From the IMG/VR virus record IMGVR_UViG_2690316267_000010: a stretch of DNA of 18,636 nucleotides; one strand, written 5' to 3'. Below, in pieces: positions 1,727 to 2,742 of this stretch; position 1 is the stretch's first letter; every line of letters starts with the position of its first letter. Source of the stretch: a virus. Its lineage: Duplodnaviria > Heunggongvirae > Uroviricota > Caudoviricetes. The notes below the pieces were generated by a model, which worked only from the letters and a program-made list of their open reading frames with translations, was not told the origin of the DNA and ran no database searches. The position numbers were made by a program, and so were the translations under genes.

Positions 1727-1894
1727 TCAAGCATTATGCAGGCTGTTTCTTTTTATCACCGGCCACAGCAATACCACAATGCCGCAGACCAGCACCCCAT
1801 CCGCCAGCACCGACATGATTCTGCTGGTGAAATCCACCATCACCACCAGAAACAGCAGGAGTGCAGCCACAGCCAGGCGCAGTTTTACCGTCAC
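1727..1894 (-). CDS. Small two-helix membrane protein (55 aa), translationally coupled to the TerB-like gene
   Basis: GTG start overlaps the TerB-like stop (GTGA overlap), GGAGAA RBS 7 nt upstream; product (M)TVKLRLAVAALLLFLVVMVDFTSRIMSVLADGVLVCGIVVLLWPVIKRNSLHNA has two hydrophobic segments. Below the 60-aa cut-off of the ORF track; found by hand translation. Confidence 0.4.
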   Translation of the reverse strand: MTVKLRLAVAALLLFLVVMVDFTSRIMSVLADGVLVCGIVVLLWPVIKRNSLHNA

Positions 1895-2352
1895 AGGTGA
1901 TTCTCCAGACGAAGACCCAGAACACCGGCAATCTCTTCCAGCACCTTGCGCTCTTCCGGCTCAATTTCGCCGTCTGCCTCCGCAATGGCCACCGCCACAT
2001 CCAGCACATCTTCCGCTTCACGCGTATCGTGTTTCACATCCTCGATCTCACGTAACGCCGCACGACGACCAGTTTTAAAGTTCGTATCCAGCTGACCGAT
2101 AATGGTTGCGCTAATCGCATTAATTTCCGAGGTAAACGCAGACAACGCAGGCTGATTACGTAAGACCTGTTCGATCTTCGCTTTCTCGGAAGCCTCACAT
2201 TCACCATCTGCACAGGCCACCAGGTATGCGGCGTTAATCACCGCCTGTGCCAGATCGCGTTTTTCAAACTTTTTAATTTCCGTTGCCGCTCTGCGGGCTT
2301 TTTTTACCAAAAATACCAAACATCGTGACGTTCCTTTGGGTGGGTGAGCCAA
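1891..2352 (-). CDS. TerB-like (tellurite-resistance TerB family) domain protein; start uncertain, possible frameshift at A7 tract
   Basis: 153-codon ORF with two acidic ADGE-type helical repeats (LVACADGECEASEKAKIEQVL and AIAEADGEIEPEERKVLEEIAGVLGL) typical of TerB-like proteins. Track start is TTG; the best RBS (AAGGAA + 8 nt) serves an out-of-frame ATG at 2323 that stops after 16 codons. Confidence 0.5.
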   Translation of the reverse strand: MAHPPKGTSRCLVFLVKKARRAATEIKKFEKRDLAQAVINAAYLVACADGECEASEKAKIEQVLRNQPALSAFTSEINAISATIIGQLDTNFKTGRRAALREIEDVKHDTREAEDVLDVAVAIAEADGEIEPEERKVLEEIAGVLGLRLENHL

Positions 2353-2495
2353 CGCCCGGGAGCGATCTGCCCACAGAGAAAGTCACACTGACCACTCCGT
2401 AAGCTCCCCCCCGAAAGGCTCTGTGGTTGGTATGCGCCGGGCGTGGCGCAGATACAAAAAAGGCCCGCAAAAGCGAGACGGGAAAATAAGTGTAG

Positions 2496-2569
2496 CGCGT
2501 TGTACTGGAGTCGAACCAGTGACCGATTGCTTAGAAGGCAATTGCTCTGTCCTGCTGAGCTAACAACGC
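2496..2569 (-). tRNA. tRNA-Arg (anticodon UCU, reads AGA)
   Basis: Hand-folded cloverleaf: acceptor GCGTTGT/ACAACGC, D-stem GCTC/GAGC, anticodon stem ATTGC/GCAAT with loop CTTCTAA, T-arm ACTGG-TTCGACT-CCAGT. CCA not encoded. Confidence 0.8.
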
Positions 2570-2582
2570 AGAATACCGATAA

Positions 2583-2659
2583 TGGACCACCACCGGGGAC
2601 TCGAACCTCGCGCAACCAGCTTCGAAGGCTGACGCTCTATCCCGATGAGCTAATGGCGG
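2583..2659 (-). tRNA. tRNA-Arg (anticodon UCG by loop position)
   Basis: Acceptor CCGCCAT/GTGGTGG (with G-U pairs), TAGCTCA D-arm, anticodon stem TCAGC/GCTGG with loop CTTCGAA, T-loop TTCGAGT, CCA encoded. Anticodon and exact ends are less certain than for the other two. Confidence 0.65.
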
Positions 2660-2666
2660 TATGTGA

Positions 2667-2742
2667 TGGTGGCCCTTGCTGGATTTGAACCAGCGACCTG
2701 GCGATTATGAGTCGCTCGCTCTCACCACTGAGCTAAAGGGCC
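2667..2742 (-). tRNA. tRNA-Ile2 (ileX/ileZ-like, anticodon CAU; elongator Met not excluded)
   Basis: GGCCCTTTAGCTCAGTGGTGAGAGCGAGCGACTCATAATCGCCAGGTCGCTGGTTCAAATCCAGCAAGGGCCACCA: perfect cloverleaf, anticodon loop CTCATAA, CCA encoded; closely resembles E. coli ileX as recalled. Confidence 0.8.

Follow-up and report, generated by a model that had tools for sequence, protein, structure and literature searches.

A TerB-family/DUF3927 gene pair, tciAB, in the accessory-gene slot of a lambdoid prophage late operon

Introduction

In the late operon of a lambdoid prophage represented by IMG/VR record IMGVR_UViG_2690316267_000010 (Caudoviricetes; a stretch of 18,636 nucleotides, here called ‘the window’), the accessory-gene or ‘moron’ slot downstream of Q and pR' holds a gene pair, tciA and tciB, encoding a predicted TerB-family protein and a 55-residue membrane protein. 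Judged from alignment, the slot is the exact equivalent of that in the Shiga toxin (Stx) 2 phage 933W, with only the cargo differing. Named TciA/TciB in phage P1, the pair is known, widely annotated and very common in lambdoid prophages of the enterohaemorrhagic Escherichia coli (EHEC) type. Taking all of the evidence together we lean, by a modest degree, towards a reading in which tciAB is a module of the lytic phase that sits in a moron slot, and in which the copy in the window is an impaired allele of tciA.

An initial annotation had singled out this region as a rare-codon tRNA cluster followed by a TerB-like gene and a small membrane protein gene in place of toxin genes, and its interpretation of the slot is supported by what follows. 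The slot does hold the pair as a cassette; the arrangement is, however, no oddity, as TciA/TciB is found in roughly 15% of complete E. coli genomes, which comes close to its being a conserved ‘backbone’ feature, the situation that the annotation had itself set against its reading. The configuration described is already known and annotated in hundreds of genomes, and the flanking tRNAs, the small RNAs (sRNAs) and the moron site have likewise been described before.

Results

The slot that holds stx2AB in phage 933W

The order of elements in the 933W record is Q, pR', qut, terminators, pT, ileZ, argN, argO, a terminator, stx2A, stx2B, a SASA esterase gene, S and R. Comparison of the window with 933W by blastn returns four homologous blocks: Q (74% identity); the pR'/qut/tR' region (window 4024..3936, 79-85%); the three tRNA genes and the terminator behind them (window 2746..2445, 92% over 304 nt); and a block spanning STnc100 and the start of nanS-p (window 1711..1212, 74-75%), which in 933W corresponds to the sequence from some 90 nt past stx2B into the esterase gene. 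The synteny with Stx phages that had been proposed for this region, with a tRNA set before the slot and a NanS-p-like gene after it, is borne out by these four blocks.

Between the third and fourth of them lie stx2AB in 933W and the TerB-like/55-residue pair in the window. The shared terminator (…CTCGCTTTTGCGGGCCTTTTTT.TATCTGCGCC), which in 933W is the ‘terminator upstream of the stx genes’, is the last homologous element on one side, with the match ending at position 2445; thereafter 933W proceeds into stx2A and the window into a leader of about 120 nt and the TerB-like gene. The two sequences reconverge at …GCATGGTGAATCCCCC, the start of the STnc100 sRNA, where homology resumes at 1711. The slot is therefore bounded on its left by the tRNA trio and terminator, and on its right by the STnc100/AgvB sRNA pair and nanS-p. 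In phage phi296 the same tRNAs and esterase gene are present with some 80 bp between them, so that a minimum of three states of the slot can be told apart: empty, filled by stx, or filled by the TerB pair. The conserved RNA elements at its two edges are plausible substrates for exchange of cargo by recombination.

As a separate observation, phi296 (PV189400) is itself a 933W-like phage, with ileZ-argN-argO and nanS-p on either side of an empty cargo slot at 4205-4286, which may be natural or may be an engineered stx deletion.

A TerB-family gene coupled to a two-helix membrane protein gene

TciA matches the Pfam TerB family (PF05099; E=7.5e-15, 55.7 bits against a cutoff of 24.4, profile positions 2-109 of 118), as the initial annotation had supposed, and PHROG 632 over its full length (E=4.6e-66); in a phmmer search of the PDB, residues 13-136 match the TerB structure 2JXU (E=1.5e-7). 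Each half of the domain contains an acidic ADG-x5-E motif (CADGECEASE and EADGEIEPEE), and eight phage homologues all share residues D38, G39, E45, D116 and E123. We assign TciA to the TerB family on this sequence evidence. The C-terminal half of the protein weakly matches DjlA (NCBIfam, E=1.6e-6) and, short of the cutoff, DUF533 (Pfam, E=3e-5). A single-sequence AlphaFold2 model is all-helical but weak, with a predicted local distance difference test score (pLDDT) of 76 and a predicted template-modelling score (pTM) of 0.41, and a Foldseek search of the PDB with this weak model gave no match at E<=0.001.

TciB, for which a 55-residue two-helix membrane protein had been anticipated, has a DUF3927 match to go with its hydropathy profile, in which two hydrophobic segments (approximately residues 5-21 and 27-47) are spaced by DFTSR and followed by a basic C-terminus. 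The stop of tciA and the GTG start of tciB overlap as GTGA at 1891-1894 (the junction reads CTGTGACGG), and tciB has a GGAG of its own 8 nt upstream of the GTG. All 80 related loci examined share the overlap, and tciB follows tciA directly in the homologous loci of P1, SP-058 and ChrisDB, such that stop and start overlap or nearly abut in four phage lineages (GTGA in the window and JLK-2012, TGATG in P1, TAAATG in SP-058 and a gap of 3 nt in ChrisDB). With a PHROG 632 gene directly next to, and overlapping, a DUF3927 gene, the window has both marks of the TciA/TciB module. Given the strength of these database matches we regard both as real genes rather than chance open reading frames (ORFs), and the conserved adjacency and coupling suggest that their products may interact.

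P1 has a third gene, tciC, encoding a hydrophobic peptide of 35 residues. The window contains no tciC homologue; STnc100 begins 5 nt past the tciB stop and leaves no room for an ORF between the two. The same spacing means that STnc100 may be the 3' end of the tciAB transcript.

The tciA leader is kept in JLK-2012 and PPyecE_EH1910, and only its last ~55 nt or so are kept in an O157 copy that has no tRNAs. A riboswitch or other structured element was considered for this leader and set aside: a permissive Rfam search of 2324-2444 gave only a spurious match to a long non-coding RNA (E=0.015), and the fold z-score was -1.4. The sRNAs PasA and PasC were likewise rejected as its identity, as the paper describing them maps both outside the region, between the genes for esterase and holin.

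A frameshift allele of tciA

Distant TciA homologues all begin MFG(I/F)(F/L)xKK, and this N-terminus (MFGxFxKK) is conserved in homologues from P1 and from N4-like, Erwinia, Pseudomonas and Vibrio phages. It is absent from the window. The A-tract at codons 7-9 of tciA has seven A's here and six in intact alleles, which puts the ancestral ATG at 2323 out of frame, to reach a stop at 2273 after 16 codons. The sole in-frame start is TTG 2319, which lies 4 nt past the ATG and 12 nt from the Shine-Dalgarno sequence and is the start chosen by the Prokaryotic Genome Annotation Pipeline (PGAP); as a mechanical ORF the gene spans 1891-2352.

The seven-A form (A7) is by far the commoner among E. coli records, an exact 66-mer being found in 556 for A7 and in 8 for its six-A (A6) counterpart. 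We also surveyed the window together with 80 close IMG/VR relatives, a set of 81 loci that is biased towards relatives of the window allele and does not give population frequencies: 47 are A7, 4 have another frameshift (delG), 2 have an amber codon alone and 28 are intact. Of the 47 A7 alleles, 30 have a second lesion, GAG>TAG, by which the invariant Glu codon of the first ADG-x5-E motif becomes amber. One O157 copy of tciA has an internal stop and is marked by PGAP as a pseudogene. No such stop interrupts the window copy, and tciB is open in nearly all of the 81 loci, with the GTGA junction present in every one.

This pattern looks like decay of tciA in resident prophages. Because so many A7 relatives also carry the amber codon, the window copy is probably an impaired or weakened allele, poorly expressed or decaying, alongside an intact tciB; and since tciA has lost its ancestral ATG frame, translational coupling between the two genes may be weak in this copy. 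We consider programmed frameshifting or transcriptional slippage at the A7 tract unlikely: AAA-AAA-AGC offers no slow codon for the +1 shift that would be needed, and the frameshift persists in a relative whose tract is interrupted (AAAGAAA).

A recurrent, catalogued phage module

A search of 5426 complete E. coli genomes with window 1700-2480 as query found the cassette in 841 of them (~15%), at 4022 places; positive genomes carry a median of 6 copies and are mostly EHEC serotypes. The junction between the last tRNA and the tciA leader is present in 826 genomes. PHROGs holds the two proteins as families 632 (‘tellurite resistance’) and 1470 (‘TciB-like…’), both in the moron category. In phage JLK-2012, 91%-identical DNA is annotated tciA and tciB, with tRNA-Asn, tRNA-Thr and tRNA-Gly before it and an esterase gene after, and PPyecE_EH1910 names the first gene ‘TciA/TerB-like protein’; the TciA proteins of these two phages are 96-98% identical to that of the window. 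In P1, tciA, tciB and tciC lie between trnA/trnT and trnI (an Ile2-type CAU tRNA) in an operon headed by the C1-controlled ban promoters, and their function is annotated there as ‘by homology’.

The family extends well beyond lambdoid phages, with TciA homologues in 128 phage records. TciB comes directly after TciA in P1-like phage-plasmids, in N4-like Salmonella and E. coli phages (SP-058, Pollock) and in Erwinia jumbo phages; in Pseudomonas and Vibrio phages the TerB gene stands alone. The pair is thus a recurrent, catalogued phage module and no peculiarity of the window.

The tRNA set upstream of the pair varies across the 81 loci: CAT-TCG-TCT in 36, CAT-TCT in 17, CAT-Lys-TCT in 6, CAT alone in 5, Asn-Gly in 3 and no tRNA in 7. 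In some copies tciAB comes right after Q with no tRNAs, as in O157:H7 PV15-279 (3948-5478), where Q is of a different type and PGAP calls tciA, with its internal stop, a pseudogene and the adjoining esterase gene frameshifted. Flanking of tciA-tciB by tRNA genes is seen in three unrelated groups, represented by P1 (1607-3267), Erwinia phage ChrisDB (976-3367) and JLK-2012 (5203-6197). This adjacency in P1, Erwinia and lambdoid phages could not be traced to a single transferred tRNA-tciAB block, as blastn finds only generic, tRNA-level similarity (73-86% over ~60-140 nt).

The tRNA trio and the flanking small RNAs

All three tRNA genes reported on the late-gene strand are matched both by ARAGORN and by the Rfam tRNA model (Table 1). 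The three anticodons had been given correctly; the two arginine genes had been listed in the wrong order, transcription running CAU, UCG, UCU. The trio does lie downstream of Q, as had been stated, though not directly so, being 1.9 kb away with three accessory genes in between. It is the tRNA set of Stx phages, in the same order and in the same place between pR' and the cargo slot, and the 933W record has its putative tRNA promoter, pT, at the position equivalent to a promoter-like site in the window. The CAU tRNA is called tRNA-Ile by PGAP in a genome that carries an identical prophage sequence, and it is 86% identical to P1 trnI (tRNA-Ile2 in the P1 record); from these annotations, and its likeness to 933W ileZ, it would decode isoleucine by way of lysidine.

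Counting the five codons read by the three tRNAs (AUA, AGA, AGG, CGA and CGG) as rare, tciA has 0.7 per 100 codons, tciB 5.4 (3 codons), the pooled late genes of the prophage 3.4 and 933W stx2A 8.8. Because tciA is so poor in codons that they read, the tRNAs do not serve tciAB; they belong to the backbone of the late region, where tciAB is a mere neighbour.

On the other side of the slot, STnc100, with its own intrinsic terminator, converges with AgvB, an anti-GcvB sRNA (PMC4104026) whose window sequence is identical to the Rfam family consensus. The two form the convergent sRNA pair reported by Tree et al. from the moron site downstream of pR' in prophages of strain Sakai; the Stx2 phage has AsxR and EcOnc27 there.

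Surroundings of the slot

The late genes of the window are on the minus strand. The first 5 kb of the window match a lambdoid prophage of the chicken E. coli isolate Z1323CEC0008 at 100% identity, and prophages in about 20 other complete genomes, O157:H7 included, at 98-99.9%. In the identical genome PGAP labels the elements tRNA-Ile, tRNA-Arg, tRNA-Arg, ‘tellurite resistance TerB family protein’ and ‘DUF3927 family protein’, followed by esterase, holin, lysozyme and lambda-like head and tail genes. That prophage also contains insertion sequence (IS) insertions and truncated genes.

Upstream, the pR' homologue aligns with an interval of 933W that carries the record annotations pR', qut and terminator (1666-1754); within it, positions 4023..3996 resemble a promoter and 3959..3947 a terminator hairpin. 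A 65-residue ORF and an AraC-family regulator gene separate the tRNAs from pR'/tR'. The regulator (44% GC, 5.9 rare codons per 100) falls under the curated cutoff for NCBIfam YdeO (E=4e-31) and is an accessory gene outside the cassette. We presume that these two resemble the prophage-borne regulators of acid resistance and of the type III secretion system (T3SS) known from EHEC. A predicted lipoprotein gene on the opposite strand sits between Q and the pR' homologue, in a Q-to-promoter gap of ~590 bp.

Downstream, Pfam matches to DUF1737 and SASA agree with the earlier description of a DUF1737/esterase-like late gene, and its DNA is 70-75% identical to the 933W esterase gene.

In the early region, on the minus strand, there are Rfam matches to C4 antisense RNA (10092-10179, 81 bits) and IsrK (10204-10280, 62 bits), which suggests an antirepressor module under antisense-RNA control, of the P1/P7 or Gifsy type, in this lambdoid prophage.

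Table 1. Features of the tciAB slot and its surroundings in the window
Feature	Position	Strand	Basis
NanS-p-like esterase gene, 5' part, continuing beyond the window	1..1319	-	Pfam DUF1737 E=7e-16 and SASA E=4e-13
AgvB anti-GcvB sRNA, convergent with STnc100	1467..1528	+	Rfam RF02702, 96.5 bits
STnc100 (EcOnc27/PasD-like) sRNA with intrinsic terminator	1529..1722	-	Rfam RF02076, 142.7 bits; terminator 1561..1540
tciB, 55-residue two-helix membrane protein, GTG start	1727..1894	-	Pfam DUF3927 E=4.3e-17; PHROG 1470 ‘TciB-like’ E=4e-30
tciA, TerB-family ORF, 142 residues from TTG 2319 (PGAP)	1891..2319	-	Pfam TerB; PHROG 632; PDB 2JXU
Ancestral tciA ATG, now a 16-codon out-of-frame ORF (MFGIFGKKSPQSGNGN*)	2273..2323	-	+1 insertion in the A-tract (T7 at 2299-2305, + strand)
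tciA leader with Shine-Dalgarno AAGGA 8 nt before ATG 2323	2324..2444	-	Sequence
Terminator-like hairpin and T-run after the tRNAs	2445..2485	-	Terminator scan match 2477..2464
tRNA-Arg (UCU), argO homologue	2495..2569	-	ARAGORN; Rfam 68 bits; 933W homology
tRNA-Arg (UCG), argN homologue	2583..2659	-	ARAGORN; Rfam 43 bits; 933W homology
tRNA, anticodon CAU, Ile2 (lysidine) type, ileZ homologue	2667..2742	-	ARAGORN; Rfam 72.5 bits
Promoter-like site, possible tRNA promoter	2753..2781	-	TTGATT-17-TATTAT, 9/12 consensus matches
AraC-family regulator gene (YdeO/GadX-like, 237 residues)	2771..3484	-	Pfam HTH_AraC/HTH_18; PHROG 1450
65-residue ORF	3619-3816	-	Weak TrmB-type helix-turn-helix match
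pR' late promoter/qut/tR' terminator homologue	3936..4024	-	Aligns with 933W 1666-1754
Predicted lipoprotein gene, 148 residues	4089-4535	+	PHROG 3152; no Pfam match; 38% GC
Q late antiterminator gene	4616..4981	-	Pfam Phage_antitermQ E=2.1e-51; PGAP ‘antiterminator Q family protein’

Discussion

A speculative model for the pair

Bringing these observations together, we propose a model in which TciA would be a cytoplasmic protein of the TerB fold, with its two ADG-x5-E motifs and a conserved hydrophobic-basic N-terminus, and TciB a two-helix hairpin in the inner membrane, translated from a start that overlaps the tciA stop; the two would be co-expressed in the lytic phase. For lambdoid phages the route might be Q-antiterminated transcription from pR' that reads through the terminators, and for P1 expression from the C1-repressed ban operon; in virulent phages, tciAB lies amid genes for replication and nucleotide metabolism. 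We suggest that the proteins would form a complex at the inner membrane, which might buffer or monitor membrane or ion stress of the infected cell, or else exclude competitors. In the window, the +1 frameshift at codon 8 would leave tciA with nothing but a weak TTG start, and probably poorly expressed or decaying, next to an intact tciB; the tRNAs would be backbone neighbours that serve phage genes rich in rare codons.

Expression of tciAB in lytic growth is suggested by its position in the late operon and by the operon in which it lies in P1, along with its presence in strictly virulent phages (N4-like and jumbo). In P1, tci transcripts are seen at 10-20 min of lytic infection, and virion preparations derived from lysates contain TciA peptides.

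Several points weigh against this model. P1 tciA, tciB and tciC were non-essential in a screen by CRISPR interference (CRISPRi), such that there is no phenotype to anchor a mechanism, and we found no experiment on any TciA or TciB in the literature. The case for an interaction between the two proteins comes down to adjacency and coupling; the AlphaFold model is poor (pTM 0.41) and there is no significant fold match. The promoter-like site upstream of the tRNAs, in combination with a weak terminator, could allow expression in the lysogen, which would fit a role that benefits the lysogen. Finally, A7 is the majority form, open for 142 codons and annotated by PGAP as intact from the TTG, and for these reasons the A7 allele may be functional rather than decaying.

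Alternative explanations

The last but one of these points leads to an alternative that we consider unlikely but worth weighing, namely that the pair serves the lysogen in defence or superinfection exclusion, with TciA as a TerB-type sensor and TciB as a small effector, supplied at low level by transcription that starts at the tRNA promoter and reads through. A promoter-like site does lie upstream of the tRNAs, and the terminator hairpin ahead of tciA is short. TerB domains, for which a role in membrane surveillance has been proposed, occur in the experimentally validated defence systems Shango, Bunzi and Dionysus; the TerB-like protein of Dionysus works with a membrane pore-former. These occurrences keep a defence or exclusion reading alive. 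A search of PADLOC-DB v2, however, gave no significant match (the best for TciA being PDC-S48, with E=0.0028 over 35 residues, and none for TciB), strictly virulent phages carry tciAB, and in P1 the pair sits in a lytic operon under repressor control. The many frameshifted or amber-bearing tciA copies in EHEC are also unexpected of a gene that protects the lysogen.

Improbable to a like degree, in our estimation, is that the cassette in this prophage is a decaying, non-functional remnant, in which the tciA frameshift abolishes TciA and the locus is simply carried along between tRNAs and sRNAs. The conserved tciA ATG does indeed open an out-of-frame ORF of 16 codons, the invariant-Glu amber codon is present in 30 of the 47 A7 relatives and a different frameshift in 4 more loci, one O157 copy is a PGAP pseudogene, and the prophage in the identical genome has IS insertions and truncated genes. 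Set against this, the window copy is free of internal stops, the in-frame TTG lies 12 nt from the Shine-Dalgarno sequence and the resulting N-terminus, MVFLVKK, keeps the hydrophobic-basic character of the ancestral one; tciB is intact with its own GGAG, and the A7 allele is very widespread.

A more adventurous variant, to which we attach a rather smaller chance still, would make TciA/TciB a phage-borne module for membrane surveillance or counter-defence, a free TerB sensor with a minimal membrane partner, deployed in lytic growth by both temperate and virulent phages of Enterobacterales. It might block membrane-targeted abortive infection, colicins or superinfecting phages, or might jam or mimic TerB-based defences such as Shango and Dionysus; and the recurrent A6/A7 tract at codon 8 might then tune or switch expression in prophages.

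Very little credence can be given to TciB as a holin-like or antiholin-like factor for lysis timing, with TciA as its regulator: the size of TciB, its two hydrophobic helices and basic C-terminus, and the position of tciB in the late operon just upstream of nanS-p and the holin and lysozyme genes would suit such a role, but the prophage already has a class II holin, the pairs of P1, SP-058 and ChrisDB are not next to lysis genes, and TciB matches no holin family in Pfam or PHROGs.

Least credible of all is that the pair confers tellurite resistance, as the label ‘tellurite resistance TerB family protein’, Pfam TerB membership and the similarity to Klebsiella TerB (PDB 2JXU) might suggest, since this is very unlikely for a lone TerB when the other ter genes are not present: unlike a ter (terZABCDEF) determinant, in which terB is clustered with terC, terD, terE, terZ and terA, neither the 33-kb PGAP-annotated context of the identical genome nor the ORFs around the cassette include any of those five, published views on lone phage terB genes hold that the other Tel-resistance genes required for activity are missing, and tciAB is also carried by phages whose hosts lack a ter operon.

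Implications

Returning to the model of a lytic-phase tciAB module in a moron slot, the comparison fixes the edges of that slot, which runs from the terminator behind argO to STnc100. It also makes plain that these prophage genes owe their ‘tellurite resistance’ label to homology alone, and that most close relatives of the window copy carry disabling lesions in tciA. With TerB domains now turning up in anti-phage systems, the role of a stand-alone TerB protein and its DUF3927 partner in P1, N4-like and Erwinia jumbo phages could be tested with simple genetics.

Comparison with known systems

Several known systems bear comparison with the pair. The TerB protein of the Klebsiella terZABCDEF operon (PDB 2JXU) is of the same Pfam family, can be aligned over ~125 residues and shares the paired ADG-x5-E motifs; the TerB protein of the window differs in being phage-carried, in standing without TerC, TerD, TerE, TerZ and TerA, and in having for its partner DUF3927, which is not a ter gene. 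Classical ter operons give phage-inhibition and colicin-resistance phenotypes, from which the name ‘tci’ originates.

The defence systems offer a second point of reference, with SngA of Shango, BnzA of Bunzi and DinB of Dionysus (whose pore-former is DinC) each a TerB-like protein beside a membrane protein, and with membrane surveillance as the proposed role. In contrast to these, tciAB comes without an ATPase, a helicase or a four-helix pore-former, and is encoded by phages, virulent ones among them, rather than in host defence islands. The N-terminal domain of DjlA, and DUF533/YebE, to which the C-terminal half of TciA shows its weak matches, are TerB-like domains held at the inner membrane; there the membrane helix is fused to the domain, whereas in the window the anchor would be TciB or the TciA N-terminus.

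The stx2AB locus of 933W shares its backbone and insertion slot with the window, with homologous flanks on both sides and the convergent downstream sRNA pair (STnc100/EcOnc27 with AsxR or AgvB) that is a described mark of the moron site. It differs in its cargo, an AB5 toxin there and a TerB-like protein with a membrane peptide here; in the three extra accessory genes that the window has between Q and the tRNAs; and in stx2A being rich, and window tciA poor, in rare codons read by the tRNAs.

Closest are the tciAB pairs of P1, JLK-2012, phage 434 and PPyecE_EH1910, each consisting of a TerB/PHROG 632 gene and then a DUF3927/PHROG 1470 gene with overlapping stop and start; TciA identity to the window runs from 40-51% in P1 to the near-identity of JLK-2012 and PPyecE_EH1910 noted above, and TciB identity from 50 to 95%. 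The P1 locus is also adjoined by tRNA genes, an Ile2-type CAU tRNA included. It departs from that of the window in having TciC where the window has an sRNA after tciB, in lacking the A7 frameshift of the window tciA, and in belonging to the C1-controlled ban operon, where the lambdoid pair of the window belongs to a Q-dependent late operon.

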